Part shown: positions 36,730 through 53,646 of the stretch, in pieces
Layout of the letters: each line of letters opens with the position of its first letter
Numbering within the stretch: the stretch's first letter is position 1
Origin: a virus
Taxonomy: Duplodnaviria; Caudoviricetes
Reading direction: 5' to 3' (one strand)
Length of the DNA stretch: 55,890 bases
Virus record (IMG/VR): IMGVR_UViG_3300009507_000022
Location: 1 to 55,890 of that record
Notes under the pieces: generated by a model
Seen by the model: the letters and a program-made list of their open reading frames with translations, nothing else
Told to the model about the DNA's origin: nothing
Databases searched by the model: none
Program-made: the position numbers and the translations under genes

Positions 36730-36741
36730 CCCTTAACATAA

Positions 36742-37126: not shown

Positions 37127-37166
37127 ACAAATTCCCTACCAATAGTGTATTTTATGACACTTTGTC
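37127..37166 (-). promoter_or_regulatory. Sigma54-like -24/-12 promoter with upstream palindrome for hsp20
   Basis: TGGTAGGGAATTTGT (37141-37127) has the same spacing as TGGCACG-N4-TTGC; GACA-N3-TGTC palindrome at 37156-37166. Confidence 0.5.
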
Positions 37167-37511
37167 TTAATTTACCGACAATGGGTCAATCTTACTGACA
37201 AGTTTGTAAAATCGTGACTGACCTCGTGTGTGCTCGTGGAGAAGAATAAACCCATCCATCTTAAACATACTAACTGTTTTATCAGCAACACCATCATCAT
37301 CACAAGTAACAATAACATGAGTATCAGTTAATACAACATCAACAGAAGTGATTGGAGAATCATCTTCCTCATCAAAATCAAATTCACCTTCAATAGAATC
37401 ATCATCTAAATTGAAGTAATCATACATATACTCCAATTTGGATACATCGGACAACGACATAAAGAAGTTGTATTCGGCATCATCCCAAATCCAATCGCCA
37501 TAATCTTCCAT
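37167..37511 (-). CDS. Acidic hypothetical protein
   Basis: Likely start MEDYGDW at 37511, with GGAGGA upstream, rather than 37562. Confidence 0.6.
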   Translation of the reverse strand: MEDYGDWIWDDAEYNFFMSLSDVSKLEYMYDYFNLDDDSIEGEFDFDEEDDSPITSVDVVLTDTHVIVTCDDDGVADKTVSMFKMDGFILLHEHTRGQSRFYKLVSKIDPLSVN

Positions 37512-37533
37512 ATGACATCCTCCTTTATTATAA

Positions 37534-37851
37534 CTATCCACGAATTGATTTATGTATCTCATTTAAGAACGATAATGCTTCTTTATTTAAATACTCACCC
37601 TCTTTGATTGATTCTAAACATATCTCAACAAACACTCGATACAATTTAGAGTCTTCGGATAAGTCAAAATATAAATCATTAAGAGTTGATATCATTTGTG
37701 ATTTATAAGATACCCTCACTTCGCCGGTTGGGTTATCGTGGATTATGAGGTCTTTAATCTTACTTTTAGAAATAGTAAAATAGGGGTCTCTTCGTTCTAT
37801 TAAGATTGAAGAAACCCCATCATCTTTTACATATTCCAAGAGAGTATTCAA
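37534..37851 (-). CDS. Hypothetical protein
   Basis: ORF track; co-oriented and tightly packed. Confidence 0.6.
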   Translation of the reverse strand: MNTLLEYVKDDGVSSILIERRDPYFTISKSKIKDLIIHDNPTGEVRVSYKSQMISTLNDLYFDLSEDSKLYRVFVEICLESIKEGEYLNKEALSFLNEIHKSIRG

Positions 37852-37857
37852 GGTATC

Positions 37858-38157
37858 TTACTGAAGAGTCCCTACACGATATCTCATTTGAGTAGAAGTC
37901 AATGCGGTATCAAGAGTTTGCATAATCTTGATAGCTTCAGCTTTAGTCAATTCGATTTCGTGATTGCCGATAATCAAAGAACCAATTTCAGTCGTGTTCC
38001 TAATTGGAAAGTCCTCCGGCTTCAAATCTGGATTAAATCCAAAATCAATTGAGGTGTAGTTCTTACCAAATGCTTTTGATTGTCTCTGAACTTCAGAATC
38101 CGTAACACCATACGACTGGTTGACATAACCACGTTGGTTCTTATTAAACTTTTTCAT
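37858..38157 (-). CDS. Hypothetical protein
   Basis: ORF track; preceded by a TATTTATA motif. Confidence 0.65.
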   Translation of the reverse strand: MKKFNKNQRGYVNQSYGVTDSEVQRQSKAFGKNYTSIDFGFNPDLKPEDFPIRNTTEIGSLIIGNHEIELTKAEAIKIMQTLDTALTSTQMRYRVGTLQ

Positions 38158-38207
38158 ATTATAAGAATTAGAATTTCCTATAAATAGTTTAGTATAGTTT
38201 AATAAAA

Positions 38208-38504
38208 TTATTTTTTACGATTTCTTCGAGCAACTCTATCAAATTTTTTCTCATTAAAGTCCATAGAGAATTTATCAGGATGAGTACGATTCAAGTTTTG
38301 TTCCAACTTAACACATTCGTTCGCCCAATACCAAGCCATTTGAACATTTGGTTGTGGGGGAATCATAAATTCAGAACCAATGGTAGACCCAACACCATCT
38401 GAAACATAGTATTGACCATTTAAATTTATTTGAGTTTTTGCGTTAGGGTACTTTTTCTGAACCTTACGTTTGTAAGATTGGAACTTCTTCTTGTTAATTT
38501 CCAT
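38208..38504 (-). CDS. Hypothetical protein
   Basis: ORF track; overlaps the upstream gene. Confidence 0.65.
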   Translation of the reverse strand: MEINKKKFQSYKRKVQKKYPNAKTQINLNGQYYVSDGVGSTIGSEFMIPPQPNVQMAWYWANECVKLEQNLNRTHPDKFSMDFNEKKFDRVARRNRKK

Positions 38505-38706
38505 TACTTAATGATTTTGTCAATCCACGAATAATATGGCAATGTGATAACTCTTTATTTACCGAACACTCTTCAAGATGTTTTCCGTTTTCTAATTCAA
38601 CAGAATAAATCCATCCTCTTTTTAGTTTTCTTCGTAGAGAAACAGTACCCACTCGGTGGATACGATTTACTCTTACGACTACCATATCTCCTACGGAGTA
38701 TATCAT
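38494..38706 (-). CDS. Small basic SH3-like hypothetical protein
   Basis: YSVGDMVVV...GTV...YSVEL pattern; ATGA coupling. Confidence 0.6.
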   Translation of the reverse strand: MIYSVGDMVVVRVNRIHRVGTVSLRRKLKRGWIYSVELENGKHLEECSVNKELSHCHIIRGLTKSLSNGN

Positions 38707-38903
38707 TGAATTACCTTAATTACTTTAGTTTCAATAACTGCGTTTACTTCGTACTCCAAGTTTGAACCTTCAAACTCGGTAACTACTTTTGCCTCTGCAT
38801 CAGTAACCGATACTGCATCAACAATATATTGTTCGGTTACTTTTTTGACACGACCTTTGTCATCTTCGTGATGAACTTTAACTTTAGCGATGTAATAAGC
38901 CAT
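38703..38903 (-). CDS. DUF4494-like protein
   Basis: YIAKVK...GRVKKVTEQYIVDAVSVTDAEAKV, a family typical of Bacteroidota and their phages. Confidence 0.75.
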   Translation of the reverse strand: MAYYIAKVKVHHEDDKGRVKKVTEQYIVDAVSVTDAEAKVVTEFEGSNLEYEVNAVIETKVIKVIQ

Positions 38904-38914
38904 AGTGTTTAAAT

Positions 38915-39520
38915 TTAAAATTGATTATAATTAGTGTTTAACATTTCAAAAAGTTCAATTTCATCTACCAATTTGTAGTCACCATTAGGGCCACCACTAT
39001 GATAGTCTTGAAAAATTGTATGGTAAAATTGAACCATCTTTTCACCATCATGCTGTTTACCAGCAGGCACAACGATGATTTCGTAATTGTCTCCATAGTC
39101 AATGAATCGGATTGAATCATCAGCGCCAGTTACTTTGTAGACCTCATGTGAGTAATTGATATCCATAATTTCATCTATTTGAATTGCGTTTGTTTGTAGT
39201 TGTTCGTTTACAAGTATACCTTCTTCAGTTGCTTCATATGCCAACCGACCTTCTTCATTCACTACTAATCGTACTAATCCTTTTTCCGATAGTGATTCAA
39301 GAGTTTGGTCTACTTCCCATGTATTGTATTTAGTCAAAGATTGGTGAAGAATATCTGACAACAAATCCATGTCATCGGCATCTTCCAATTCATCAGCCAA
39401 GAAGTGAAGAAACATCTCCACATTTTCAATCTTCATCATCTCAAAGAAATCGCTCTTATATAATTCCTTTCTAATGTTCGAGAAGACATCATCAAACTCC
39501 TCTGCGCTCCATTGACTCAT
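38915..39520 (-). CDS. Acidic hypothetical protein (possible winged-helix segment)
   Basis: TLESLSEKGLV...YEATEEG. Confidence 0.6.
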   Translation of the reverse strand: MSQWSAEEFDDVFSNIRKELYKSDFFEMMKIENVEMFLHFLADELEDADDMDLLSDILHQSLTKYNTWEVDQTLESLSEKGLVRLVVNEEGRLAYEATEEGILVNEQLQTNAIQIDEIMDINYSHEVYKVTGADDSIRFIDYGDNYEIIVVPAGKQHDGEKMVQFYHTIFQDYHSGGPNGDYKLVDEIELFEMLNTNYNQF

Positions 39521-39683
39521 ATTGTTCTTTTATTGATTGGTAGTATTCCATAGATTCAACCGAACCCATTAACATATCAGCACTACCATAGTTTTCTAAT
39601 ACACTCTTTACCCCAAAGTCATATACCATATTCTGAAGTAATGACTTACTTGGAAGGATTCGTTTATTCATTCCCATCTTCAA
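39492..39683 (-). CDS. Hypothetical protein
   Basis: ORF track; fills the gap between neighbours. Confidence 0.5.
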   Translation of the reverse strand: MKMGMNKRILPSKSLLQNMVYDFGVKSVLENYGSADMLMGSVESMEYYQSIKEQYESMERRGV

Positions 39684-39954
39684 ACTTTTCTTTGAGTTTA
39701 TTCAAAACCCATTCGTTACGTTTGGCGTTATATTCTTTTGACATTGTATTCAATGACTCATGTTCCTTGTCGGATATGTCACGACCCTCAACCTTTGCTG
39801 CTGTATATGCGTATCGTTTAAGGTAATAGCCCGGCAATGGTTTAGTGAATTGTTTTAAATACTCAGCCTTAGCATCCAAGTAGTCCAAGAACTCATCTTC
39901 AGTCAATGACTTCATTTGTTCTTCGGTTAATTCGTTATTAGGGTCGTAAATCAT
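39664..39954 (-). CDS. Hypothetical protein
   Basis: ORF track; directly downstream of a promoter. Confidence 0.65.
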   Translation of the reverse strand: MIYDPNNELTEEQMKSLTEDEFLDYLDAKAEYLKQFTKPLPGYYLKRYAYTAAKVEGRDISDKEHESLNTMSKEYNAKRNEWVLNKLKEKFEDGNE

Positions 39955-39959
39955 CTTGA

Positions 39960-39991
39960 CAAATATACAAAATTAATTTTAAATATCCAAG
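39960..39991 (-). promoter_or_regulatory. Bacteroidota-type sigma70 promoter
   Basis: CTTG-N20-TATATTTG, 5 nt before the ATG at 39954. Confidence 0.7.
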
Positions 39992-40392
39992 CCTCTCCGG
40001 CGCATTTTTTCGTGACAATAATAGTCATACAATTCTTCCAAGTCCATCGGGTCAGCTTTCATCATCTCATCCCAAAGGTCAAATCCAAACTCTTCTCGTA
40101 ACTCATTACGAAGATTGGTTAACAAACGAATCTCGTGAGCGTGTCCTTCTTCATCAAGTTTAAGGGCCCGTACATTCTTCATCTTGGCAGTCACACGGGC
40201 TTGTCCGTAGTCACCTGTCCTCTTCATAGTTTCTTGGAAGAGGGAAGCGTACTCTTGTCGAGACGCCTCCGCTTCCGTGAAGTAATGAGAGTAATTAAAG
40301 TCCCCATTTTTTATCTTGTCAAACAAGTGTGCGGATTGGGGAAGTTTCCGTTTCTTATTACCCTTCCACCATTGGTATGGATTATATGCCAT
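39979..40392 (-). CDS. Hypothetical protein
   Basis: ORF track; directly downstream of the AAA gene. Confidence 0.65.
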   Translation of the reverse strand: MAYNPYQWWKGNKKRKLPQSAHLFDKIKNGDFNYSHYFTEAEASRQEYASLFQETMKRTGDYGQARVTAKMKNVRALKLDEEGHAHEIRLLTNLRNELREEFGFDLWDEMMKADPMDLEELYDYYCHEKMRRRGLDI

Positions 40393-40394
40393 CT

Positions 40395-41657
40395 TTAGAA
40401 AGGATTAGAAATATCAGCAGTTTCAACATTGAACAAGTCCTCATTTTCAGGGGTCTTACCCAAGAACTTCTGAACGTATTGTTTCATATAAACTCGTTCT
40501 GAATCAGCACCACCACTTTGGTCGAACATTGGGTAGATGGTAATCTCAGCAGCTTCCTCAAGGGAGAACCCATCGTAAAGTAGAGAACCAATCTCGACAG
40601 CGGTACGAGTCGAAAGTGAGTTAGACAACTTTGGTGACTCGGACAACAACTCACCACGAGTCATAGAAGTAATCTCAGCAACCGACTGAAGGAGGTTCAT
40701 CTCAACCGAAGGATACATCATTGAGAGGAGTTCTGACTCTTCATATTGTGACAACGTATCCATCTCAATCACAACGAATCGGTCAAGGATAGCCCGGTCA
40801 AGAGCTCGTGTGGCTGTGTACTCATTACCGATGTTAGCAGAGGCGATGAAGGACACACCCTCGGCCACCTTGACAACAGGAGCGTCAGCAGCCTCATCCA
40901 AACGTAGGTATCGTTGACCCAAGTCAAGAACCGACATCAAGATGTTGTGAGCCTCTGGATGAGCACGAGTCAACTCATCAAGAATCACCACGGTGTTTGG
41001 AGTTTGAATCGCCTTGACAAAAGGTGAGGGGTTGAAGACCGTACCCTTCTTGGTATCAAATTGAGTATTACCAATCAGAGTGGTTCGTGGGTCTTGAGTA
41101 GCACCCAAGTTGATGATGAAAGTGTTGTAACCCTCAATCGAATTAGCAGCAGCCTTGGCCGCCATAGTCTTACCACATCCGGCGGGACCAGTCATCATAA
41201 TGTTCTTACCACGAATGATGTTACGAATAAGATACTTCCACTTGAGGGAGTTCATAAACAACATCTTTGGTTTCAAACCATTAGCATCCTCGTGGATGAA
41301 TTTCAAGACATCATCGGTCATTTCAATAGAGGCCGGAGCCGGAGTATTAGGTTCATATTTCAAAGCGACAAGACCGCCATTCGGTGCGGTGAAGTTACCA
41401 ACTGGTTCAGGATTAGTCTCAACCTTCTCAACTGGCACACGAGTGTGACCAATCTCACCATTCTTTAAAGTACCAACGACACGAACCTTCCAAGCCCACT
41501 TGGCCGGATTGTTAGCAGCCGCTCGGGCACGTTTGTAAAGGGAAGACCCATTCTCATTAAGTTCAGGGATGTTAAAGGTAACACCTTCTGAATCTTGGAA
41601 CATTAGTAGATTGTCAACCTCAACAATCTTACCGAAAACTGATTTTTGTGCTTTCAT
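40395..41657 (-). CDS. MoxR/CbbQ/CobS-like AAA+ ATPase
   Basis: Walker A GPAGCGKT, Walker B VILDE, IASAN, arginine finger ILDRF, STR. Confidence 0.9.
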   Translation of the reverse strand: MKAQKSVFGKIVEVDNLLMFQDSEGVTFNIPELNENGSSLYKRARAAANNPAKWAWKVRVVGTLKNGEIGHTRVPVEKVETNPEPVGNFTAPNGGLVALKYEPNTPAPASIEMTDDVLKFIHEDANGLKPKMLFMNSLKWKYLIRNIIRGKNIMMTGPAGCGKTMAAKAAANSIEGYNTFIINLGATQDPRTTLIGNTQFDTKKGTVFNPSPFVKAIQTPNTVVILDELTRAHPEAHNILMSVLDLGQRYLRLDEAADAPVVKVAEGVSFIASANIGNEYTATRALDRAILDRFVVIEMDTLSQYEESELLSMMYPSVEMNLLQSVAEITSMTRGELLSESPKLSNSLSTRTAVEIGSLLYDGFSLEEAAEITIYPMFDQSGGADSERVYMKQYVQKFLGKTPENEDLFNVETADISNPF

Positions 41658-41696
41658 AGAAAACTGATTTAATTATTATCTCTCATTATTACTCTG

Positions 41697-41752
41697 TAAA
41701 TGTACGAAACATATTGGTTAAAACCAAATCTTTAATGTTAACAAATTGTTAA
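41697..41752 (-). promoter_or_regulatory. AAA-gene promoter with TTAACA-N5-TTAACA box
   Basis: TTAACA(atttg)TTAACA-N7-TTTG-N20-TACATTTA. Confidence 0.7.
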
Positions 41753-43857
41753 ATCTTCACCTCAAACTTTTTATTCAAGGTCTTCGCCAGTTGAGTCATA
41801 TTACTCGTGTCGATGAACTCTGCGTCCTTACCATACATTTCGGTGAATGATTCCATACCACTACCATGTCCAAAGTCGTAGTCAGCAATAAAGTAGGATA
41901 GGACTTGGACACCGGCTTGTCTCATCTTTTTGACTTGAGCCGCTGTGTGTTTACGAGCAGCAACACCACCATATGAAATCTGACTATTGTCAAACCCTGG
42001 CCAACCATCGGAGAAGTTGATAAGGTATGTATCAGTACCATTCTTGGTCTTGGTCAACTCGTTGAGGATAGCCTCATAACATAATCCTTCGGGAGTAGTA
42101 CCATCGTAAGTGATGTACTTGAAGAGTTGCTGAATCTTTGAGAACTTGTCCTTACGACTATCGTAAGCAATCAACATCAAAGGTTGAACACTACCAAAGT
42201 TACCAGCTGAGTAGTAAACACCTCGGTAAGAAATTACCACGTTGATGTTATCGGTCATTGAAGCCGCCTTAGCGATGGCGACAGCAGCGGTTTGAGTATT
42301 GAACCACTTCTTACCACTCATCGAAGAACTTGCGTCAATTGAGATGTGAAGTAGAACCGGCGTTGATTTGTTAATCAAGGTTTGTTCGAAGATGTCGAAG
42401 TTACCAAACCCAATCTCGTGAATCATACGACCACTCAACTTACCACTCTTCATTCGTGGGGTAGTGAGGACACGTTCTTCGGAACGAGTCTTGAGCTTCT
42501 TACCAAGGATAGTACCCAACTGAATACCTCTCTTAATGTAAGGTTCATTTCGGTCAGCACTCCATGGCGATGTTGACAACATACCTACCATGCCGGAGTC
42601 AATCAAACCCTTGGTCATATTGTTGATGATGTAGGTTTGAACTCCGTTGGAGCCCGTTGACCAATTACTTTTGTTAAAACCCTTACCGGTCACTTCTGAT
42701 TTGATGTCTGCTTTGTCAAGTTGGTCAATCTTGTTTTTATCAGCCTTGGAGATTTTCTTTTTGGTAATCTCACCCTCCATGAAGTCATTTTGTTTCTTAA
42801 TAGCATTATCCAACATTTTCTTTTGGCGGTCTGAAAGCGGCTCGTATTGACCACCAGCCCCATTGGGATTGTAATCAACAACATCCATACCCTCTTCATT
42901 AGACTCATCAGACTCTTCACCATCGTTAGAGTCACTTGGAGAAGACTCACCTTGACCCTCACCACTCATACCACCACCACTTTGTTGGTTGTTGGTATCA
43001 CCACTCATTGATGATTCACCATTGGTATCACCATTACTTTCTTCATCAGAGTTAGAGTCAGAACCACTTTGATTTTGAGACTCAACTGAAATGTTCTTTT
43101 CAACAATCATAAGAATCTGACCGGCCACCTCAAGAGCATCCCACGAATCTTTCAAACGAGAGATGTTACGAAGGTCAAGGACATTCCAAATCTCACGAAG
43201 ACCTTTGAGGGCGTTGAGGTCACGATTGGGGTTGGTCAAGTTGATGATACGGAACATATAAGAATCCCAATCCTCATCACGTTTTTCTGAAGACTGAAGA
43301 CCTTTGTCAATCACACTTGAGTGAAAGTATTTGTCATACATAGACTCGTAGTAACCACGATAGCCGGGAGCCGTAGTGTAAATGTGGTTATCGATTCTTC
43401 GGTCTTCAACGTAGTTAAGAAGTGACTTGAGGTTATTGGAGATTAACCATTTAAGGTCATCAACACCACAATTGTAACGATTAGCCAACCACTCTTTATC
43501 AATGGTAGATGGTAGGTAACCATTTCTCATTTCAGTCAGAGTTTCGAAATCAGTCAAAGCGATATGAGACCCCTCGTGGAGAGCCAGACCAACAACGGGG
43601 TCGAACTCTTTGTCATCCAACTTAGCGGAGATGGTAACCGACTGACCATCAGTATAAGAATCCTCACCACGACCATCGAAGGTCACTGGGATTGACCTAC
43701 CCGTAACGATGTTTACGAAGTTACCGATAGACCTTTTGTAGGCCATCAACTTCATTAGGTCACTTGACTTTTTCTCAACCGTGGTTAGGTTGTCATCGGA
43801 CTCTTCAAAGATTGAATTGTCAAGCCAGAACGATGAATAGGACATTTTATTTTTCAT
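41749..43857 (-). CDS. CobT-like VWA-domain protein with N-terminal HExxH
   Basis: ALHEGSH and LNYVEDRRI, an acidic Ser/Gly linker, and MIDAS motifs DASSSMS, TPEG and FSDG. Confidence 0.88.
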   Translation of the reverse strand: MKNKMSYSSFWLDNSIFEESDDNLTTVEKKSSDLMKLMAYKRSIGNFVNIVTGRSIPVTFDGRGEDSYTDGQSVTISAKLDDKEFDPVVGLALHEGSHIALTDFETLTEMRNGYLPSTIDKEWLANRYNCGVDDLKWLISNNLKSLLNYVEDRRIDNHIYTTAPGYRGYYESMYDKYFHSSVIDKGLQSSEKRDEDWDSYMFRIINLTNPNRDLNALKGLREIWNVLDLRNISRLKDSWDALEVAGQILMIVEKNISVESQNQSGSDSNSDEESNGDTNGESSMSGDTNNQQSGGGMSGEGQGESSPSDSNDGEESDESNEEGMDVVDYNPNGAGGQYEPLSDRQKKMLDNAIKKQNDFMEGEITKKKISKADKNKIDQLDKADIKSEVTGKGFNKSNWSTGSNGVQTYIINNMTKGLIDSGMVGMLSTSPWSADRNEPYIKRGIQLGTILGKKLKTRSEERVLTTPRMKSGKLSGRMIHEIGFGNFDIFEQTLINKSTPVLLHISIDASSSMSGKKWFNTQTAAVAIAKAASMTDNINVVISYRGVYYSAGNFGSVQPLMLIAYDSRKDKFSKIQQLFKYITYDGTTPEGLCYEAILNELTKTKNGTDTYLINFSDGWPGFDNSQISYGGVAARKHTAAQVKKMRQAGVQVLSYFIADYDFGHGSGMESFTEMYGKDAEFIDTSNMTQLAKTLNKKFEVKI

Positions 43858-43878
43858 ATGCTCTCAATGATTACTTTA

Positions 43879-43934
43879 TAAAAGTAGTGAAAAAAAGGGA
43901 AATAAACAAGTTTCTAATGTTAAGAAATTGTTAA
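43879..43934 (-). promoter_or_regulatory. VWA-gene promoter with TTAACA-N5-TTAACA box
   Basis: TTAACA(atttc)TTAACA-N7-CTTG-N20-TACTTTTA. Confidence 0.7.
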
Positions 43935-44084
43935 ATCTTTTTTGTGTTTCTCTTTACGAGAATACGTTTTTTTGCTCTTGTGAGTTTGTTGAGTGGTCTT
44001 TTTACCAATATGATGACTTGCCTCACCGGCAGTCCACCCACCATTGAAGTCCAAACTTTCTTGATATGATTTCTTCTTCTCCAT
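43920..44084 (-). CDS. 54-aa basic protein, ArfA-like candidate
   Basis: MEKKKSYQESLDFNGGWTAGEASHHIGKKTTQQTHKSKKTYSRKEKHKKDLTIS; below the ORF-track cutoff and has its own promoter. Confidence 0.6.
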   Translation of the reverse strand: MEKKKSYQESLDFNGGWTAGEASHHIGKKTTQQTHKSKKTYSRKEKHKKDLTIS

Positions 44085-44096
44085 CACAAATACATA

Positions 44097-44152
44097 CAAA
44101 TGTAATGAAAAAAAGTGAGATGGCCAAGAAATGAATGTTAACTATTTGTTAA
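44097..44152 (-). promoter_or_regulatory. Promoter with TTAACA-N5-TTAACA box for the 54-aa ORF
   Basis: TTAACA(aatag)TTAACA-N7-CTTG-N20-TACATTTG. Confidence 0.72.
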
Positions 44153-44528
44153 ATTTTAATCTAACTCTATCCGAAATTGGTATCGGGTCTCCATTCTCAT
44201 CGATACGAACGAACTTAATATTAGTAGATAAGATAACCGATTGTACGCCAGAGTATACATTATGTGCTCTTGCTTCAAGATATAATGTAAGGGATGTGTT
44301 ACCAACCTCTTTTACATCACCATATATTTTAAGGAGTTGACCTTCTTTAGCAGGTCTTTTAAATAGACACTCATCAATCTTGATGGTGACCATACGGGGT
44401 GTATCAGCAACTTCCATGGCGAGTGCAGCACCCGCAGCATCCAACCAAGCAAGTAGCTTACCACCAAATAGATTAGCATGGAATCCTAAATCGGATTTCT
44501 TAATAGGATGTGTACTGATTAACTGCAT
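44142..44528 (-). CDS. Hotdog-fold acyl-CoA thioesterase (YciA-like)
   Basis: DLGFHANLFGGKLLAWLD, MVT, F..PAKEGQ, VGNTSL and FVRIDENGDP. Confidence 0.88.
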   Translation of the reverse strand: MQLISTHPIKKSDLGFHANLFGGKLLAWLDAAGAALAMEVADTPRMVTIKIDECLFKRPAKEGQLLKIYGDVKEVGNTSLTLYLEARAHNVYSGVQSVILSTNIKFVRIDENGDPIPISDRVRLKFNK

Positions 44529-44529
44529 T

Positions 44530-44817
44530 TTAAAATGGTGGTTCTAATAACCATTGTTTAATCTCTTCTCGTACTGAATCATCTTTTTGTTCCATCCAAA
44601 CAAGTTGCCACTCATCTCGTAGATACCTTCTATGGTGTTCCAACAACTCATCACCCCTATCAAGATAGGTAACAATACCTTTCAGTACAGCATAGGTCTT
44701 ATTCTTTTCTACTTGACTCCATTTAGAGTTTTCTATAAGTTGATACATCACCAACACAATCTCGGCTGGTGATTTAAACGACCATAGTTTTTTGATGTAC
44801 TCTTGTTTAGTTTCCAT
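44530..44817 (-). CDS. Hypothetical protein
   Basis: ORF track; directly after tRNA-Gly. Confidence 0.6.
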   Translation of the reverse strand: METKQEYIKKLWSFKSPAEIVLVMYQLIENSKWSQVEKNKTYAVLKGIVTYLDRGDELLEHHRRYLRDEWQLVWMEQKDDSVREEIKQWLLEPPF

Positions 44818-44827
44818 TGATACCTTG

Positions 44828-44900
44828 AGCGAAAGACCGGGTTCGAACCGGCGACCCTAACCTTGGCAAGGTTATGCTCTACCAACTGAGCTACTTTCGC
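44828..44900 (-). tRNA. tRNA-Gly(GCC)
   Basis: Canonical cloverleaf GCGAAAG...TTGCCAA...GGTTCGAACC...CTTTCGCT. Confidence 0.95.
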
Positions 44901-44906
44901 TTATAG

Positions 44907-44978
44907 AGCGGAGAGGTGGCTCTGCCCCACCATCTTTGTACTGGACGTACAACGAGTTTCTCTTAACTCCTCCCCCGC
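44907..44978 (-). ncRNA. Non-canonical tRNA-Gly(UCC)-like RNA, copy 1
   Basis: Acceptor GCGGGGG/TCTCCGC+T, D arm GAGTT-AAGAGA-AACTC, anticodon arm TTGTA-CGTCCAG-TACAA, T arm GGTGG-GGCAGAG-CCACC. Confidence 0.8.
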
Positions 44979-44984
44979 ATTGTT

Positions 44985-45070
44985 GGGTAGTAATAACCGG
45001 TAGCCCATACTTTAGGCAAGGCCTTTAGCAATTGATGTAGCGGTTTTATCCACACCTTTAATTACTACCC
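44985..45070 (-). ncRNA. Putative 86-nt structured RNA
   Basis: Perfect 10-bp terminal stem GGGTAGTAAT/ATTACTACCC exactly fills the gap between the two tRNA-like RNAs. Confidence 0.55.
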
Positions 45071-45073
45071 TTG

Positions 45074-45145
45074 AGCGGAAGGTTGGAACTGCCCCAACAC
45101 CTTTTATCTGGATGATAAACGACTTTCTTTTAAGTCTTCTTCCGC
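45074..45145 (-). ncRNA. Non-canonical tRNA-Gly(UCC)-like RNA, copy 2
   Basis: Acceptor GCGGAAG/CTTCCGC+T, D arm GACTT-AAAAGA-AAGTC, anticodon arm TTTAT-CATCCAG-ATAAA, T arm GTTGG-GGCAGTT-CCAAC. Confidence 0.8.
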
Positions 45146-45155
45146 GTTTGTTATA

Positions 45156-45186
45156 CAAATATACAAAATTAATTTTAAATATCAAA
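45156..45186 (-). promoter_or_regulatory. Bacteroidota-type sigma70 promoter for the Gly-RNA cluster
   Basis: TTTG-N19-TATATTTG, 10 nt upstream of tRNA-like copy 2. Confidence 0.72.
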
Positions 45187-46156
45187 ATAAAAATTGATAA
45201 TCATCTATATTTGTTGAAATTTGTAATCTAATCCAATCAGAGTTGTAATCACCAGGTATGGTACAATTGGCTCGAAACTCAATATTAGATGGTAAATCAA
45301 TTGTAGTATTACTTCTAATGTGTACCCAATTACAATGGCCATCATAAATTTCATAACCATGTTGAACCAACATATCCATTAATTGTCGTTTGGTTTGAGT
45401 TACACCATCGATATATTTATACACACTCTCTTTATTATTAATTAAAGTTTGTATCCATTTAACACCAAGTCCACTAATCTCGTACATATCTTTATACACC
45501 ATTAGGTTCTCAATGTTTTTATTTTGTGAAATAATTACACCAACCCTAACTCCAGCAGACCCCCATGCTTTTGACATAGAACGAATAACAAATAAGTTGG
45601 GGAATCTTTCAGTTAATTGAACTACACTTTCAGTTTTACTAAATTCAATATATGCCTCATCAACTAAAGTAGGTACACCACAATGTAAAATCTTTAGTAG
45701 GTCACCACGAGAAATGGTATCACCAATTGGTGATGATGGATTTGATAATACAACAACACTATTTTTCTCTATGTTGTGGATTGTATTCTTAACATCAAAC
45801 TTACCAAGCTGATATGGTACACTAATAACACTCATACCCATCATATTAGCATATACATTATACATACCAAAACATGGGTCTGAAAGTATAACCTCTTTAT
45901 CAGAGTGGAGTTCAAAGAAATATTTAATACATCTATCACTACCTGCACCAATCATTAAATCAGTTCCACTTGGTATATTATAAAACTCCTTTAGTTGTGG
46001 TCTAACCTCCTCAACATTTGGATAATACCTAACATCAGTATCTCGCAGTGAATCAATAAACGACTGCCATATATTATTCTCCCACATATCGTTACGCTCG
46101 GCTGAGTGTAGTCGGAGTTTATCGTGTGGTATGATTGGGTTATTCTTTCGTTTCAT
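45182..46156 (-). CDS. PLP-dependent class I/II aminotransferase (HisC/CobD-like)
   Basis: YYP, GAGSD, SNPSSPIG, VDEAYIEF and RSMSKAWGSAGVRVG. Confidence 0.85.
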   Translation of the reverse strand: MKRKNNPIIPHDKLRLHSAERNDMWENNIWQSFIDSLRDTDVRYYPNVEEVRPQLKEFYNIPSGTDLMIGAGSDRCIKYFFELHSDKEVILSDPCFGMYNVYANMMGMSVISVPYQLGKFDVKNTIHNIEKNSVVVLSNPSSPIGDTISRGDLLKILHCGVPTLVDEAYIEFSKTESVVQLTERFPNLFVIRSMSKAWGSAGVRVGVIISQNKNIENLMVYKDMYEISGLGVKWIQTLINNKESVYKYIDGVTQTKRQLMDMLVQHGYEIYDGHCNWVHIRSNTTIDLPSNIEFRANCTIPGDYNSDWIRLQISTNIDDYQFLF

Positions 46157-46961
46157 CTTTTTTAAAATCTTTATATGGGTTTGTGGATTCTAATTTATTG
46201 ATGATTTTCTTCATCTCACTAATAACAAACTCCCTACGATGTGTAGTAGCACGTTCAAAAACATCTTGGTCTTTTTCTTTTGTATTCAATCTAACTTGTA
46301 ATACAATCCCTTTACGATGGTGACTTGTATAGTTAGCGGATGACCCATGCACCATCAGATGATTGAAAAATAAAATATCACCAGCCTTCATAGTTACTGT
46401 CTTAATACCATAGGTATCATTTAGATACTGAAGTGTTTTTGTAGTTAATCTTCGTTTGTGTCCAAGGTTATCTCCAATGATATCTTGATGTTCTAACAAT
46501 CCAAACTTATCAGAGCCAGGAATAATCTTTAAACACCCATTATCAATTGTATGGTCATCCAATGCAATGTAAATTTGCATAAAGTTTTCGTGGTCATCGA
46601 CTGTATAGCCAGGAGCATATGTATCGATATTAGACATCTCTTGATGCCACTCAACGGCACTACCAAAGAACGCTCCCTTATTATTTACAATGAGATGGTT
46701 AAAGGTGTAGTTATCACTCCTAAATAAAGTAGTACAAAAGTTTTGTATATACTCGTTTTTAGGAACTAAACTAAACACCTTATCATCCACCAAGTTCCCG
46801 TAGCCCCAAGGAACATCACTATATGGAATGTACAATTTAGGTTCAATAGTTGAGAGTTGTAATTTAAGGGCACGGATAAAATCCTCACCAAGAATTCCTT
46901 CTGCGAAGTAGTACCCATCTTCTCTATATTTCTCTATAACATTTTCCATATCATAAAACAT
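46140..46961 (-). CDS. PhyH-like Fe(II)/2-oxoglutarate dioxygenase
   Basis: WHQE, IALDD..IDNGCLKIIPGS, MKAGDILFFNHLMVHGS..N...HRK; start trimmed to avoid tRNA-Thr. Confidence 0.85.
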   Translation of the reverse strand: MFYDMENVIEKYREDGYYFAEGILGEDFIRALKLQLSTIEPKLYIPYSDVPWGYGNLVDDKVFSLVPKNEYIQNFCTTLFRSDNYTFNHLIVNNKGAFFGSAVEWHQEMSNIDTYAPGYTVDDHENFMQIYIALDDHTIDNGCLKIIPGSDKFGLLEHQDIIGDNLGHKRRLTTKTLQYLNDTYGIKTVTMKAGDILFFNHLMVHGSSANYTSHHRKGIVLQVRLNTKEKDQDVFERATTHRREFVISEMKKIINKLESTNPYKDFKKDETKE

Positions 46962-46973
46962 CTGACTGCGTTG

Positions 46974-47047
46974 AGCCTCCAGTTGGATTCGAACCAACGA
47001 CCCCGAGATTACAAATCACGTGCTCTGGCCAGCTGAGCTATGGAGGC
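46974..47047 (-). tRNA. tRNA-Thr(UGU)
   Basis: GCCTCCA...TTTGTAA...GGTTCGAATCC...TGGAGGCT. Confidence 0.93.
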
Positions 47048-47050
47048 TTT

Positions 47051-47198
47051 TAGACCCAATCACCTCACTATCTGCAGGTGCAAGAGAATGTCGAGCTAAT
47101 TGCATATACATTCTAATTGAGTCATCGGTAGTTGATTGGGGTTCTACTACCAAAACCCATAGGCTAGACTCAGCGTCTTTCCTACCTTGACAGGGCAG
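47051..47198 (-). ncRNA. Putative ~150-nt pseudoknotted RNA
   Basis: Several perfect 5-8 bp helices and an 8-bp loop-to-3'-end complement in the spacer between tRNA-Ser and tRNA-Thr. Confidence 0.55.
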
Positions 47199-47201
47199 TT
47201 G

Positions 47202-47286
47202 CGGAGAGTCAGGGATTCGAACCCCGGGTACCTTGCGGTACGCTGGTTTTCAAGACCAGTGCATTCGACCACTCTGCCAACTCTCC
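47202..47286 (-). tRNA. tRNA-Ser(UGA)
   Basis: GGAGAGT...CTTGAAA, long variable arm, GGTTCGAATCC. Confidence 0.95.
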
Positions 47287-47292
47287 GTACGG

Positions 47293-47553
47293 TTATCCTT
47301 TCAACAATTGCTTACTATCCAACTCATCAAACCCACCATACTCTTCACCGAAGTTATCACGAAGGGTTGATAATTTATCAGTAGCATTGGTCAGTTGGTC
47401 TACCAATGTATCAAGTTCTTCAGTATGTTGGGGGTGTTCTCCAATAGCAACTGGTGATTCGAAGTAAATAGAAATTCTGGCTCTTGCGTCCATAATCTCT
47501 GCCGTGTATTTTGCTTCCAATGCTTGGAATAATCTACGAGAAATCTTACTCAT
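47293..47553 (-). CDS. Conserved phage hypothetical protein
   Basis: [10 protein letters not shown] motif; located inside the tRNA array. Confidence 0.7.
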
Positions 47554-47607
47554 AACTTTTGTTTTTAATTCTAATATAAATATGTTTCACAACATTAATA
47601 AACATAG

Positions 47608-47679
47608 TAGCCCGTAGGGGAATCGAACCCCTCTTTCATCCGTGAAAGGGATGCGTCCTAACCGATAGACCAACGGGCC
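47608..47679 (-). tRNA. tRNA-Glu(UUC)
   Basis: GGCCCGT...CTTTCAC...GGTTCGATTCC. Confidence 0.95.
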
Positions 47680-47686
47680 ATTTGCG

Positions 47687-47759
<73 letters not shown>

Positions 47760-47849
47760 AACTGGTTGTTTTAGGACAACCATAACCTGCCTACTTTAGC
47801 TCCACCCGATTTTTTACAAGAATGGGAAACTTGAGGTACACGCCTGGGG

Positions 47850-47932
47850 TGGGGGTAGCTGGACTCGAACCAACGAACTCTATACGAGGAGGGAGTTACA
47901 GTCCCTTGCAATTGCCGCTATGCGATACCCCC
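47850..47932 (-). tRNA. tRNA-Tyr(GUA)
   Basis: GGGGGTA...CTGTAAC, long variable arm, GGTTCGAGTCC. Confidence 0.93.
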
Positions 47933-47942
47933 AATTTATTTG

Positions 47943-48014
47943 TACCCCCTCAAGGATTCGAACCTCGATTCGCTGAACCAAAATCAGATGTCCTGCCAAT
48001 TAGACGAAAGGGGT
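47943..48014 (-). tRNA. tRNA-Gln(UUG)
   Basis: ACCCCTT...TTTTGGT...GGTTCGAATCC. Confidence 0.9.
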
Positions 48015-48017
48015 AAA

Positions 48018-48094
48018 TGGTACACCCAACAGGAGTCGAACCTGTAACCTACGCATTAGAAGTGCGTTGCTCTATCCAATTGAGCTATGGGTGC
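48018..48094 (-). tRNA. tRNA-Arg(UCU), CCA encoded
   Basis: GCACCCA...CTTCTAA...GGTTCGACTCC...ACCA. Confidence 0.95.
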
Positions 48095-48118
48095 TCGTTA
48101 ATAAGTTAAAGAACTTTG

Positions 48119-48204
48119 TACCAAAGGTGGGAATCGAACCCACACGGACATTACTGTCCAAGGGATTTTAAGTCCCTCGTGTCTACCTATTCCACCACTT
48201 CGGC
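48119..48204 (-). tRNA. tRNA-Leu(UAA)
   Basis: GCCGAAG...CTTAAAA, long variable arm, GGTTCGATTCC. Confidence 0.95.
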
Positions 48205-48217
48205 GTTTTTGGTGATA

Positions 48218-48249
48218 CAAGTATACGAAATAAAATTCACACCACCAAA
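48218..48249 (-). promoter_or_regulatory. Bacteroidota-type sigma70 promoter for the tRNA array
   Basis: TTTG-N20-TATACTTG, 13 nt before tRNA-Leu. Confidence 0.7.
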
Positions 48250-48567
48250 TCAGTATTTAGATATTTGTTCTTTTACTTTCTGAATTAATTCGTTGTCGGT
48301 CAGGTATGGAATCAACTCCTCCAACAACGACTTCATAAAATCTTTTGATTTCTTCTTTGAGATTTGTTGATTGGTATGTTCCACTTGATATAAGTGATAT
48401 GCAATTTCATCAACCGATTTCAACTTGTTGTAGTATTTGCTCAATCTCTGGTCTATCTTACGACTACGACCAATATCAGTAATAGTTGGAAACGCTTTGT
48501 GTAGTTCATCAATACGACCCTTGAGGTATTGAATCTCTAATAGTTTGTGTAGTTCTTTTTCGTTCAT
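48250..48567 (-). CDS. Hypothetical protein
   Basis: ORF track; ATGA coupling. Confidence 0.65.
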   Translation of the reverse strand: MNEKELHKLLEIQYLKGRIDELHKAFPTITDIGRSRKIDQRLSKYYNKLKSVDEIAYHLYQVEHTNQQISKKKSKDFMKSLLEELIPYLTDNELIQKVKEQISKY

Positions 48568-50390
48568 AACAATTCTTTTGATAGTTCAAAATAATGAGAA
48601 CACTTATCATTATCGTGTAGTGGTATTAGACTAAACAACAATGATGCGGTTATCAATTTAATATTAGTTAACTCTTCCATACTAAACTTACTTTCAAAAT
48701 ATTTTTTGATTCTTTGTCTGTATGATTCAACCACATACTTGTCTGATAAGATTTCATCATATCCACAAAGTGATTGATATATTTTTGCGTAATCGTAATA
48801 GGGGTCACCATAAATTCCAAACTCACTATACTTAACATCAATGAATTTGATATTACTTGTTGAAGTAAAGATGATATTTGTAAATACACAATCTCCGTGA
48901 TATGTAGATAATTCAAATCCATGCTTCAAATATAAGTCTAATCCATTTCGTATTTTAGAATAAACAACATCGGCATTATCAAATTTTGAATAATCATATT
49001 GTTTGTACCTATTATCTATTTTTTGTTGATAGTCAATATACGAATTATTTTTTGAATGCACAACTTTATTAGAGTGTAATCGGTCAATAGATTCCAATAA
49101 TAAGTCAATATGCCGTTCAGTCAATATGTTGTTAATAAACAATTCACTAAATGTAGTACCTTCAATCTTTTCCATCTCAAGATAGCCCTCACCATACGAT
49201 ATTAATTTAGGAAACAAATCCGATAACGAGGTCTCGTGGATGTCGCTGTAATATTTAGATTCACCTGATAGTTTAGAATCTTGTGAGTATTTTATAACGG
49301 AATTTTCCGATACTACTATCTTATTAAAACTTCGTGGCTTGATATCATCTAAATAAAATCCAAGTTGTTTTGATAAATCCATTTTAGGATTTATGCATAG
49401 GTCATCTATATAATGGTGCGCATATGGTTTACCAAATACTAACTCATCGTATGGAATGTTAAACTTATCCAACGTGTCCATAGTAATCTTACCAATGTCT
49501 GCGACCACACCACCCACATTACCATTATGGGTTCTCATCCTACGAGCGGTATATACTATGATATGATGGCCAGCTTCTTTTAACTTTCTTAAATAAGTAA
49601 TGGTATCTTGTATTGGCTCTACACTTGTATAGTCACCAGATACTCTTGGGTAGGTAACGAGAGTGTTGTCCAAGTCAAAAACAAATCGTTGAGGTTCTAC
49701 TTTGTAGTTCTTACTAAACTCAACAATATGTTGCGGTGTACCCAGTACATAGAAGTTGGATACACACATACCTCTAAACTCACAACCACCATCAATCATC
49801 GATTTAATTACATCAGAAGTATACACCTCACCTTGAGTGTAATCCATATTGAGTAAGTAACGATGTAATTCTTTTACCGACCAAAAGACATAACAACCAC
49901 TATTTGCATTGTCCGAAATCTTTTCCTTTTCTTTTATTTGGGTGATTACATTATCAGTACCTAACTTGATGTATGAATAGATTGGCTTGGGGTCGGTACT
50001 ATTAAAGTACATAACACCATTATCTACAAGCCGTGCTTTACTTAATACATCTTCATCATAGAATGTATCACCATCCAATACTACCAACTTATCATCTTCT
50101 TTAAAGAAGTGTTCGATGGCAAGCCGAATGGTTTCGGCAGCACCACGGGTGTTGGGTACTGACTTTGTTTTGATGTGTGGATACTTGGACTGAATGATGT
50201 TCCCAAGATTATGTTTATCCAACGATTCATTATAAGTGATGTACAACTCATCATCCTCGGCAAGTTTTAGATTGTCAATAACCCAAAACAAAAGAGGTTT
50301 ACCCAATACCTTTATGAGAGGTTTGGGTGTAGTATAGTTGGCATCGCTAAATCGTTTACCAACCCCACCAAGTGGAATTAGTATTTTCAT
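48564..50390 (-). CDS. Trifunctional sugar-nucleotidyltransferase / HAD phosphatase (BcbF-like) / APH-choline-kinase-like protein
   Basis: LIPLGGVGKRF...PKPLI...DGD; VFDLDNTL...YTAR...GKP...YIDD; YHGD...NI...FID...GDPYYDYAK. Confidence 0.85.
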   Translation of the reverse strand: MKILIPLGGVGKRFSDANYTTPKPLIKVLGKPLLFWVIDNLKLAEDDELYITYNESLDKHNLGNIIQSKYPHIKTKSVPNTRGAAETIRLAIEHFFKEDDKLVVLDGDTFYDEDVLSKARLVDNGVMYFNSTDPKPIYSYIKLGTDNVITQIKEKEKISDNANSGCYVFWSVKELHRYLLNMDYTQGEVYTSDVIKSMIDGGCEFRGMCVSNFYVLGTPQHIVEFSKNYKVEPQRFVFDLDNTLVTYPRVSGDYTSVEPIQDTITYLRKLKEAGHHIIVYTARRMRTHNGNVGGVVADIGKITMDTLDKFNIPYDELVFGKPYAHHYIDDLCINPKMDLSKQLGFYLDDIKPRSFNKIVVSENSVIKYSQDSKLSGESKYYSDIHETSLSDLFPKLISYGEGYLEMEKIEGTTFSELFINNILTERHIDLLLESIDRLHSNKVVHSKNNSYIDYQQKIDNRYKQYDYSKFDNADVVYSKIRNGLDLYLKHGFELSTYHGDCVFTNIIFTSTSNIKFIDVKYSEFGIYGDPYYDYAKIYQSLCGYDEILSDKYVVESYRQRIKKYFESKFSMEELTNIKLITASLLFSLIPLHDNDKCSHYFELSKELL

Positions 50391-52707: not shown

Positions 52708-53646
52708 TTAGTTACTTAATTCAGCTTTAATAGAAGGATGACACTCATAGTCAATCAGCTCATAGTCAAACTCACCATTTAAGATATCTACATTACTAAC
52801 CTTTAACTCTGGTAAAGGGAATGTATGTCTATTCATTTGTTCAATGGCTTGGTCTATATGATTTTTATATAAGTGTACATCACCAAGGTTTCCAATCAAA
52901 TCACCTGGTTTGTATCCTGTCTCTTCACATAATAGAAGTAATAGTGTTGCATATGATGCAATGTTAAATGGTAGACCAAGGAATGTATCCACACTTCTCT
53001 GATTCCACATTAGAGATAGTTTACCATCTGATACATAACATTGGAATCCATAGTGACATGGTGGTAGAGTCATATCATTTATATCACCAACATTCCAAGC
53101 GGATACCATATGTCTACGAGAATCGGGATTGTATTTCAATCCATTTATGAGGTTTTCTATTTGGTCTGCAGTTCTCTCTACAATAATCGGATTACCACCA
53201 TTAAACTTTTCAGTATAATATTCAGTCCAACTTCTCCATTGTTTACCATAGATGGGGCCTAACTCTCCCCATTTCTTAGCAAACTCATCATTTGTTTTAA
53301 TCTTATCAATGAACTCACTTTTTGATAAAACAAAATCATGCGGAGGGATACCTGGTGTAGTTTCTTTACCTAAATAAGCTTGGTAGCAGTCTCCATCCCA
53401 AATATGACAATTATTATCAACCAAATATTTGATGTTGGTATCTCCTTTCAAGAACCACTTCAATTCGGTCATCATAGTTTTGACTGCCATCTTCTTTGTG
53501 GTTAGTAATGGAAACCCATGACACATACAGTGTCGGATTTGTCTACCAAATACGGAGATGGTACCTGTACCAGTTCGGTCAGACTTTTCTACTCCGTTGG
53601 TAAGGATGTCATTGAGTAGAATTAAATAATCAGTTTCAATGTTCAT
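52708..53646 (-). CDS. thyA: Thymidylate synthase
   Basis: DRTGTGT, FPLLTTKK, LGPIYGKQWR, DSRR, LPPCH, QRSVDTFLGLPFNIASY and HLY. Confidence 0.97.
   Translation of the reverse strand: MNIETDYLILLNDILTNGVEKSDRTGTGTISVFGRQIRHCMCHGFPLLTTKKMAVKTMMTELKWFLKGDTNIKYLVDNNCHIWDGDCYQAYLGKETTPGIPPHDFVLSKSEFIDKIKTNDEFAKKWGELGPIYGKQWRSWTEYYTEKFNGGNPIIVERTADQIENLINGLKYNPDSRRHMVSAWNVGDINDMTLPPCHYGFQCYVSDGKLSLMWNQRSVDTFLGLPFNIASYATLLLLLCEETGYKPGDLIGNLGDVHLYKNHIDQAIEQMNRHTFPLPELKVSNVDILNGEFDYELIDYECHPSIKAELSN

Follow-up and report, generated by a model that had tools for sequence, protein, structure and literature searches.

Introduction

Dedicated non-translating aminoacyl-tRNAs have, to our knowledge, one textbook case, which is staphylococcal cell-wall synthesis. 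In Staphylococcus aureus and Staphylococcus epidermidis, the non-proteogenic (NP) tRNA-Gly(UCC) species NP1-NP3 act as glycine donors for FmhB, FemA and FemB, and FmhB is inhibited in vitro by EF-Tu sequestration (PMC7826273). Glycine is also withdrawn from Gly-tRNA-Gly by Mom, which transfers it to the N6 of adenine in double-stranded DNA (dsDNA) (PMC13219725). Here, we analyze IMG/VR virus record IMGVR_UViG_3300009507_000022, the whole of which (55,890 bp; estimated completeness about 30%) is referred to as the window, and two paralogous RNAs in its tRNA array, tRL_A and tRL_B, that resemble tRNA-Gly(UCC). An original prediction on this DNA had described them as chargeable but not built for the ribosome. 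We propose that these look-alikes are probably private, non-decoding glycine carriers for the phage's Mom-type DNA modification.

Results

Two tRNA-Gly look-alikes that escape tRNA finders

The core of a canonical tRNA comprises U8/A14, G18G19, U33, T54-Psi55-C56 and a 7-nt anticodon loop in which positions 32 and 38 are unpaired. tRL_B (Table 1) consists of a 7-bp acceptor stem, A8, a 5-bp D stem with the 6-nt D-loop AAAAGA, a 6-bp anticodon stem that closes the 5-nt loop AUCCA, a T arm with the loop GGCAGUU, and U73. tRL_A adopts the same architecture with the D-loop AAGAGA, the anticodon loop C-G-U-C-C-A-G and the T-loop GGCAGAG, and CCA is encoded after neither RNA. The cloverleaf is the minimum-free-energy (MFE) fold of both copies (z-scores of -3.48 and -2.63). 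All 22 pairs are formed in each copy, with six pairs differing on both sides and two on one side, and a slid-partner control for the two copies pairs at only 48-62%.

The fold and pairing reproduce the two 72-nt cloverleaves of the original prediction with each stem that it listed, and its statement that the stems are kept through compensatory changes is borne out. Both copies retain the G1-C72, C2-G71 and G3-C70 pairs, U73 and C35/C36; they share the GGCAG T-loop, C32/G38 and U51-A63, and their D-loops lack GG, all as had been noted. The normal tRNA-Gly(GCC) that it had placed directly downstream is also found there. A miss by tRNA finders had been expected and was observed: ARAGORN calls nine tRNAs in the window, with neither tRL_A nor tRL_B among them, and the Rfam tRNA model RF00005 yields no match over 44700-45400 even at E<=10 (family threshold, 29 bits). 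Across all families of Rfam 15, the two cloverleaves returned only a chance-level match to RUF2 (19.5 bits versus a gathering score of 90). The nine canonical tRNAs, each recognized by both ARAGORN and Rfam, are located at 44827-48204 on the minus strand and form an array that consists mostly of U34 tRNAs.

A selected RNA family in phages

A pattern scan of a viral contig collection, in which only GCGG...C-N-UCCAG...GGCAG...CCGC was fixed, retrieved 40 loci. The covariance model R1, built from the two window copies and applied to the window and these loci, detected 76 copies in 41 sources, corresponding to 40 distinct sequences. Independent phage members score 58.7-98 bits with R1, and all of them except an intermediate at L032 score 80-98 bits. 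Most loci carry two copies, which are separated by 5 nt, by 68-95 nt or, in a few loci, by about 450-490 nt. Of the 40 loci, 37 have the look-alikes placed among canonical tRNAs of the same strand, and 15 contain a tRNA-Gly(GCC). The block formed by the two look-alikes and the spacer between them is 93% identical to that of the relative G021, compared with 70-78% for the flanking genes.

All 880 stem cells of the 40 distinct sequences are paired, and 14 of the 22 pairs exhibit compensatory change. The observed covariation was reached by none of 500 shuffles, and slid controls pair at 44-52%. G1-C72, C2-G71, G3-C70, U73, A8, C35, C36 and A37 are invariant in the phage family, and the T-loop core GGCRG is conserved in 39 of the 40 distinct phage copies as well as in all 13 bacterial copies described below. 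The D stem has five pairs, the fifth of which is backed by one C-G covariation, and encloses the 6-nt D-loop AARAGA. U14 pairs with A21, and U8-A14, G18G19, T54-Psi55-C56, the conserved U33 and the open 7-nt loop are all lost. Because positions 32 and 38 form a covarying Watson-Crick pair (C-G in 39 of 40 sequences and U-A in the remaining one), the anticodon stem has six pairs and the loop five bases. Base 34 is U in 35 and A in five of the distinct phage copies.

The original prediction had listed a purine at position 33 among the shared deviations. This description fits the window copies (G and A) but not the family, in which base 33 is A in 24, U in 14, G in one and C in one of the 40 distinct sequences; the real feature at this position thus appears to be the loss of the U33 constraint rather than a purine. 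The prediction that selection, not decay, shaped these RNAs agrees with the retained GGCRG core, the 100% stem pairing and the abundant covariation. Judged by their sequences, the look-alikes are a real, selected RNA family that evidently derived from a tRNA-Gly.

The look-alike is joined to the mom gene in bacteria

A degenerate pattern that describes the RNA only was applied to one genome per species for 185,579 species. It identified 13 loci in 11 metagenome-assembled genomes (MAGs) of Planctomycetota and Verrucomicrobiota (hereafter PVC bacteria), which belong to Planctomycetales, Phycisphaerae, Pirellulales, Anaerohalosphaeraceae and, in one case, Puniceicoccaceae. The bacterial RNAs are single copies that score 65-76 bits with R1; ARAGORN calls none of the 13, and no Rfam family matches them. 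They contain A8, AAGAGA, GGCRGTT and C32/G38, tolerate any base at position 33 and have the anticodon CCC.

Mom (Pfam family PF25680) is encoded in all 11 MAGs, with scores of 136-155 bits. At 12 of the 13 loci, the mom gene is located immediately upstream of the RNA on the same strand, and the conserved junction sequence of these loci is also present at the thirteenth. In the two loci inspected, mom is itself preceded by a DNA methylase gene. The adjacency emerged from a search in which Mom did not serve as bait, in GC-rich bacteria remote from the AT-rich phages, and no other observation argues more strongly for a functional tie.

The two genes are not simply neighbors. At 12 of 12 loci (within L263-L275), no stop codon separates the Mom reading frame from the RNA; the frame stays open and in phase across all 72 nt, and the Mom stop is positioned 84-201 nt after the first base of the RNA, always at a multiple of three. 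The junction reads ...W-K/R-I-D/E | GCG GGC GAG, as exemplified by L265:6962-7693 (minus strand), in which the RNA occupies 6977-7048 (minus strand). If RNase P were to excise the bacterial look-alike, a stop-less mom mRNA would be left.

A survey of 151 Planctomycetota genomes revealed the RNA in two, both among the 11 MAGs, and Mom in five, three of them new (G195, G227 and G148). In G195, a 132-bit Mom match is followed within a few nucleotides by a divergent, reduced tRNA-like element of 66 nt (L285:1432-1497, minus strand; R1, 23.5 bits). Its acceptor stem is GCGGACG/CGUCCGC, it has U73 and only a short D arm, and its loop contains CC-A. The match of G148 is marginal, at 26.7 bits alone and 27.4-27.5 bits with neighbors relative to a cut-off of 27.1 bits.

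Mom accompanies the family in near-complete phage records

Among the 35 family-bearing records searched (from the 40 loci), 11 contain Mom. Every record with a completeness of 90% or more belongs to this group (nine of nine), as do two less complete ones (87% and 70%), and none of the 24 Mom-negative records exceeds 52%. The Mom matches of the phage relatives score 116-166 bits. Each positive record has two or three copies, arranged as a tandem pair with, in three records, a third copy a few kb off, and these genes stand far from the tRNA array. G021 (87% complete) is collinear with the window, in that window positions 30000-49900 correspond to 29.7-45.1 kb of G021. Because the two Mom genes of G021, at 109.5-111 kb, fall beyond the span covered by the window, the absence of Mom from the 56-kb fragment is expected.

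The original prediction had suggested a search for co-occurring aminoacyl-tRNA transferases. Pfam and PHROGs scans covered 40 of the 57 open reading frames (ORFs) of at least 70 aa in the window, the other 17 being small. No aminoacyl-tRNA transferase, GNAT or Fem-family gene was seen among these 40 ORFs, the search for a Fem gene being confined to the window. Mom, the proposed partner, is absent from the window and present in nine of nine near-complete family-bearing phage records. Of the functions that had been listed, a glycine donor for a non-ribosomal transferase is favored by the co-occurrence with Mom and the bacterial adjacency, and the transferase is most likely Mom; the sponge and decoy functions gained no specific support.

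A search that started from Mom gave 80 loci, ten of which are in records already covered; 45 of the other 70 were searched with R1, the 25 smallest being left out. Five of these 45 Mom-bearing records are at least 90% complete (G045, G053, G056, G063 and G069), and G045 has two R1-type copies. The relatives found via the baseplate protein are mostly short fragments, and five were used as controls. The complete relatives G036 and G037, whose baseplate proteins are 51-53% identical, have neither Mom nor a look-alike detectable with R1. The named relatives obtained through DnaK, the AAA ATPase and the baseplate protein are distant (Microcystis phage Mel-JY01, 49%; Flavobacterium phage immuto, 40%). 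Both lack Mom and show no match to a looser tRNA-Gly-like pattern of imperfect sensitivity, which missed both R1-type copies of G045 in a check on positives and whose negatives are weak alone.

The conservation pattern fits a chargeable, probably non-decoding RNA

The set composed of G1-C72, C2-G71, G3-C70, U73, C35 and C36, which we take, in line with the original prediction, to be the identity set of the bacterial glycyl-tRNA synthetase (GlyRS), is invariant in all 53 distinct copies (40 phage and 13 bacterial). Because this set is invariant, bases 33 and 34 are free and positions 32 and 38 are Watson-Crick paired, the family supports the original description of RNAs that would be chargeable but not built for the ribosome.

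The same features bear on whether the look-alikes are decoys or sponges for GlyRS or a host tRNA-targeting defense nuclease rather than donors. Phage tRNAs that counter anticodon nucleases are known, and tRNA-shaped, probably synthetase-binding RNAs that occur in two copies inside a phage tRNA array would suit such a role. However, an anticodon-nuclease decoy should keep the native loop, which is the part that is changed here. A decoy would also leave the invariant acceptor identity set and the bacterial Mom adjacency unexplained, and no defense or nuclease partner was found. We therefore regard a decoy or sponge as very unlikely.

The affinity for EF-Tu was computed with the additive model of Schrader and Uhlenbeck (PMC3239215, Table 2). 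The model value is -9.5 kcal/mol for both window copies and for 39 of the 40 family members, compared with -10.7 kcal/mol for the neighboring tRNA-Gly(GCC). Bacterial Gly-UCC tRNAs have a mean of -10.8 kcal/mol, and the staphylococcal NP tRNA-Gly is calculated at -9.5 kcal/mol (PMC3239215).

Less rewired relatives of the family

Three of the large-array Mom-bearing phages, G053, G056 and G063, have one or two 71-nt tRNA-Gly(UCC) paralogues with the closed loop C-G-UCC-A-G and canonical D and T loops (L230:353-501, L231:5924-6276 and L232:2282-2639, respectively). These paralogues combine G33 and C32-G38 with a normal T-Psi-C loop and a GG D-loop and seem to represent a less extensively rewired form of the same design. 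Their T stems either have predicted values of -8.1 to -8.8 kcal/mol, which would mean very weak EF-Tu binding, or contain pairs outside the model. Because a canonical tRNA-Gly(UCC) sits beside them, the closed-loop paralogue is not the decoder in these phages. R1 detected no full R1-type copy in G053, G056 or G063 and matched only an 8-nt-loop variant of G056 at a weak 38 bits. Variants with the 8-nt anticodon loop C-A-U-U-C-C-A-G occur at L032:5445-5516 and L231:5924-5996, and ARAGORN reports them as tRNA-??? with a two-base anticodon. The L032 copy unites the acceptor and T stems of the family with a canonical TTCAAAT T-loop and a GGG D-loop and is, from its sequence, a possible evolutionary intermediate.

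Observations that weigh against a Mom carrier, and two alternatives

Several observations weigh against a dedicated Mom carrier. The window, which represents about 30% of the genome, contains no Mom gene, and we infer the partner from relatives. Mu Mom accepts each of the three E. coli tRNA-Gly isoacceptors and requires no special RNA (PMC13219725). Mom can occur without any such RNA, as observed in the Mom-bearing phage record G069 (95% complete), which has no detectable look-alike, and in the Planctomycetota genome G227 (Mom match, 67 bits). Furthermore, the link to Mom in phages is inseparable from shared ancestry, given that the positives constitute one broad T4-like group and the negatives are outgroups. 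The canonical tRNA-Gly(UCC) decoders of sister phages are calculated at -9.8 to -10.0 kcal/mol, so that the predicted weakening of EF-Tu binding relative to them is only 0.3-0.5 kcal/mol and the model-based argument is supportive but modest.

Expression data add little in either direction. Metatranscriptome contigs from four runs in three studies cover 45034-45270, including tRL_B, at a depth of 2.6-3.9 and with 0-6 differences, and no RNA-library contig covers tRL_A. The heavy depth over 44807-44917 belongs to the tRNA-Gly(GCC) of other organisms. This coverage is evidence neither way, as DNA carry-over is possible and contigs are blind to ends, strand and CCA.

The tRNA complement of these phages raises the question of whether the look-alikes are the working tRNA-Gly(UCC) of the phage, odd-shaped but reading GGA/GGG. 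A canonical tRNA-Gly(UCC) is seen in none of the 40 family-bearing loci and is absent from the near-complete records G012, G007 and G003, whose full tRNA sets were named. Since GGA and GGG account for 30% of the glycine codons of the window (GGU/GGC, 70%), residual GGA/GGG decoding is possible. The predominance of U34 tRNAs in the array and the presence of U33 in 14 of the 40 distinct copies are also consistent with a decoder. A decoder is, however, difficult to reconcile with a free base 33, A34 in five of 40 copies, a covarying 32-38 pair that leaves a 5-nt loop and the replacement of the elbow bases. In addition, the bacterial homologues, with CCC and an unconstrained base 33, are embedded in frame in the 3'-terminal part of the Mom ORF, and G053, G056 and G063 keep a canonical tRNA-Gly(UCC) beside their closed-loop forms. 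A working decoder thus seems distinctly unlikely.

Closed loops also occur apart from Mom. A second phage lineage (15 loci in records of 37-110 kb; Table 1) carries a solitary tRNA-Gly(UCC) with the loop C-A-UCC-A-G and canonical D and T loops, in which positions 27 and 43 are mismatched and a shifted stem closes a 5-nt loop. Mom is present in none of these 15 records, including four that are at least 98% complete, and therefore the 5-nt loop type is not exclusive to Mom. The flanking ORFs of this lineage have no Pfam match and no profile similarity to Mom. Moreover, in a GC-rich viral contig (L034:489-1244), a look-alike with UCC and U33 abuts a 230-aa ORF that Pfam does not identify as Mom. 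The TAG stop of this ORF is formed by RNA bases 7-9, and BLASTP and hhalign found only a faint motif shared with Mom, in the W-L-Y-G region.

These two cases, together with the aminotransferase, PhyH dioxygenase and thioesterase genes near the look-alikes of the window, would fit donors of glycine or another group, or cofactors, for another unrecognized enzyme, with the Mom link due to shared ancestry only. By contrast, the cellular scan, which used the RNA only, landed beside Mom at 12 of 13 loci; no known aminoacyl-tRNA transferase family was found in the 40 of 57 window ORFs scanned, and the neighboring genes of the window are not conserved beside the RNA in other loci. We consider service to another enzyme unlikely and retain the Mom carrier as the preferred reading.

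A conserved spacer RNA and a weak promoter match

The 95-nt sequence between the two look-alikes (Table 1) has homologues that extend the comparison to seven loci with spacers of 68-95 nt. Of its 19 predicted pairs, nine have changed on both sides and remain paired, and in the closing stem six of ten pairs are changed on both sides. The loop motifs UUAAAG, GAUAAARCCG and ACCGGUUAU are conserved, and no Rfam family matches the spacer. We regard the spacer as a separate, conserved and structured RNA element. Its position between two cloverleaves would be compatible with look-alikes that are processing punctuation only, that is, RNase P and 3'-end signals that release the spacer RNA. However, most loci have copies 5 nt apart without a spacer, the bacterial copies are single, and the invariant C35, C36 and U73 are not required for punctuation. 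Punctuation as the sole role is extremely unlikely.

The sigma-70-like promoter match upstream of tRL_B (Table 1) is weak, and promoter-like sites in the region are not more frequent than in shuffles. At 45140-45176, over about 35 nt just upstream of tRL_B, two metatranscriptome runs of one study reach a depth of 40-109 versus about 3 on each side. This peak may reflect AT-rich cross-matching or could be a released 5' leader.

Genomic neighborhood

All genes of the window are on the minus strand, and its baseplate genes indicate a myovirus. The PhyH and aminotransferase genes stand between the look-alikes and the remaining tRNA array. Seven relatives of the neighboring aminotransferase are without a look-alike, their best R1 match being an ordinary tRNA-Gly(GCC) at 23.8 bits, and the flanking genes of the window are therefore not the conserved partners. 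A BLASTN comparison of the 700-bp look-alike region with 50,697 phage records returned tRNA-Gly(GCC) matches only.

The tRNA array (44142-50390, minus strand) is interleaved with small-molecule enzyme genes, which may represent a pathway for modifying sugars or nucleotides; in other loci, the look-alikes have no link to these genes. The content of chaperone, protease and repair genes at 28000-53700 (minus strand) is unusually high for a phage fragment.

Table 1. Positions of the look-alikes, associated elements and neighboring genes (window coordinates unless a locus is named; R1 was built from tRL_A and tRL_B themselves)
Feature	Position	Strand	Remarks
tRL_B, upstream tRNA-Gly(UCC)-like RNA, 72 nt	45074..45145	-	MFE cloverleaf; R1 98.7 bits
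tRL_A, downstream tRNA-Gly(UCC)-like RNA, 72 nt	44907..44978	-	MFE cloverleaf; R1 98.1 bits
Spacer RNA between look-alikes, 95 nt	44979..45073	-	Fold z -2.59; 10-bp closing stem GGGUAGUAAU/AUUACUACCC
Spacer homologues	L013:10082-10176, L033:1648-1742, L040:6936-7030, L046:11653-11742, L025:12639-12718, L011:1239-1306		
Sigma-70-like promoter match (TTGATA, 16 nt, TATATT)	45158..45185	-	10/12 positions; ends 12 nt before tRL_B
Canonical tRNA-Gly(GCC)	44827..44900	-	6 nt downstream of tRL_A; ARAGORN; Rfam 69.6 bits; ordinary GGU/GGC decoder
Remaining tRNA array (Thr, Ser, Glu, Pro, Tyr, Gln, Arg, Leu)	46973..48204	-	ARAGORN
4HBT thioesterase	44142-44528	-	
Class I/II aminotransferase	45182-46156	-	
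PhyH dioxygenase	46140-46997	-	
608-aa nucleotidyl-transferase/kinase-like fusion	48564-50390	-	
ClpP	31879-32505	-	
UV endonuclease UvdE	33869-34819	-	
DnaK	34842-36677	-	
Hsp20	36742-37089	-	
MoxR/CobS-like AAA ATPase	40395-41657	-	
Thymidylate synthase	52708-53646	-	
Second-lineage loci, solitary tRNA-Gly(UCC)	L239, L240, L242-L245, L247, L253, L255, L257-L262		

Discussion

From the observed family, its conservation, and its co-occurrence and linkage with Mom, we infer a route from gene to modified DNA. The look-alikes would be transcribed together with the phage tRNA array and excised by host tRNA-processing enzymes. Because no CCA is encoded, a host enzyme is proposed to add it, and because the whole glycine identity set is kept, the host GlyRS is proposed to charge the product. 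Three features would exclude the charged RNA from translation: the anticodon loop closed to 5 nt by C32-G38 without a conserved U33, the elbow rewired by AARAGA and GGCRG in place of GG and T-Psi-C, and a T stem of the weakly EF-Tu-binding kind. The glycyl-RNA would then serve as a private glycine donor to Mom, whose product, N6-carbamoylmethyl-adenine, blocks restriction. The Mom genes of the window's phage would reside outside the 56-kb fragment.

A more ambitious version of this proposal, which we put forward as a tentative and rather doubtful possibility, is that Mom reads the rewired elbow (AARAGA/GGCRG) as a private determinant and that enzyme and carrier form a two-part traveling module. 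In PVC bacteria, the carrier lies in phase at the 3' end of mom, and each RNase P cut would produce a stop-less mRNA, a built-in brake coupling the level of a toxic enzyme to the output of its cofactor. In T4-like phages, enzyme and carrier would have become separated, with duplicate copies of the carrier now placed among the tRNA genes of the array.

If the Mom carrier is correct, phages and some bacteria have independently built a second dedicated non-translating carrier, and this carrier feeds an enzyme that writes an amino-acid-derived DNA mark, a chemistry established only in 2023-2026. The virus would exploit the host charging machinery without competing with its own protein synthesis. 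The look-alikes would also offer a naturally occurring orthogonal tRNA-like scaffold, accepted by GlyRS for charging and invisible to EF-Tu and the ribosome, and the RNA family would be a simple genomic marker for adenine hypermodification in uncultured phages.

Full-text literature searches found no description of such an RNA, and the supplements of the papers on Mom, jumbo phages and viral structured RNAs might list the family. The main text of the Mom paper (PMC13219725) describes no dedicated or neighboring tRNA-like gene, and the terms 'tRNA-like', 'neighbor' and 'Planctomycet' do not occur in it. In its main text, a jumbo-phage survey discusses Mom without any tRNA link, and the main text of a catalogue of 10,006 viral structured RNAs refers to tRNA-like candidates but not to the look-alike family. 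The present analysis adds the counter-examples and, in PVC bacteria, the stop-less junction at which mom runs in frame into the look-alike.

Comparison with known systems

The look-alikes resemble the staphylococcal NP tRNAs in several respects. Both are extra tRNA-Gly paralogues beside ordinary decoders. In each, the anticodon stem comprises six pairs and its loop five bases, and T-Psi-C is missing from the T-loop, which has TGC/TGT in the Staphylococcus NP species and GGC in the look-alikes. The T stems of both are predicted to be weak EF-Tu binders, with the same calculated model value of -9.5 kcal/mol. The shared logic would be a carrier that escapes EF-Tu sequestration and is reachable by a non-ribosomal transferase. 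However, the rewiring is unlike that of the NP species, as the look-alikes have A8, a 5-bp D stem, AARAGA and GGCRG, and their hosts are phages and PVC bacteria, whereas the NP lineage is reported to occur only in staphylococci (PMC7826273; PMC3239215). The proposed acceptor also differs: DNA adenine, via the GNAT enzyme Mom, rather than a peptidoglycan precursor via Fem. By analogy, the look-alikes would thus work like the staphylococcal NP tRNAs but belong to another lineage.

Phage Mu Mom belongs to the same enzyme family (PF25680), and the proposed chemistry, glycyl transfer to adenine N6, is the same. Mu, however, borrows any of the three isoacceptors of the host tRNA-Gly (PMC13219725), whereas the genomes analyzed here encode their own putative carrier, which would not decode. 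Unlike in Mu, the look-alike of PVC bacteria is fused to the end of the mom ORF.

Ordinary phage array tRNAs, such as the tRNA-Gly(GCC) of the window and the canonical tRNA-Gly(UCC) of G053, G056 and G063, share the setting, strand, spacing and size of the look-alikes. In contrast to these tRNAs, the look-alikes fail tRNA models and lack U8-A14, G18G19, a conserved U33, the open 7-nt loop and T54-Psi55. Intermediates between the two combine a canonical T-loop and a GG D-loop with a closed or 8-nt anticodon loop.

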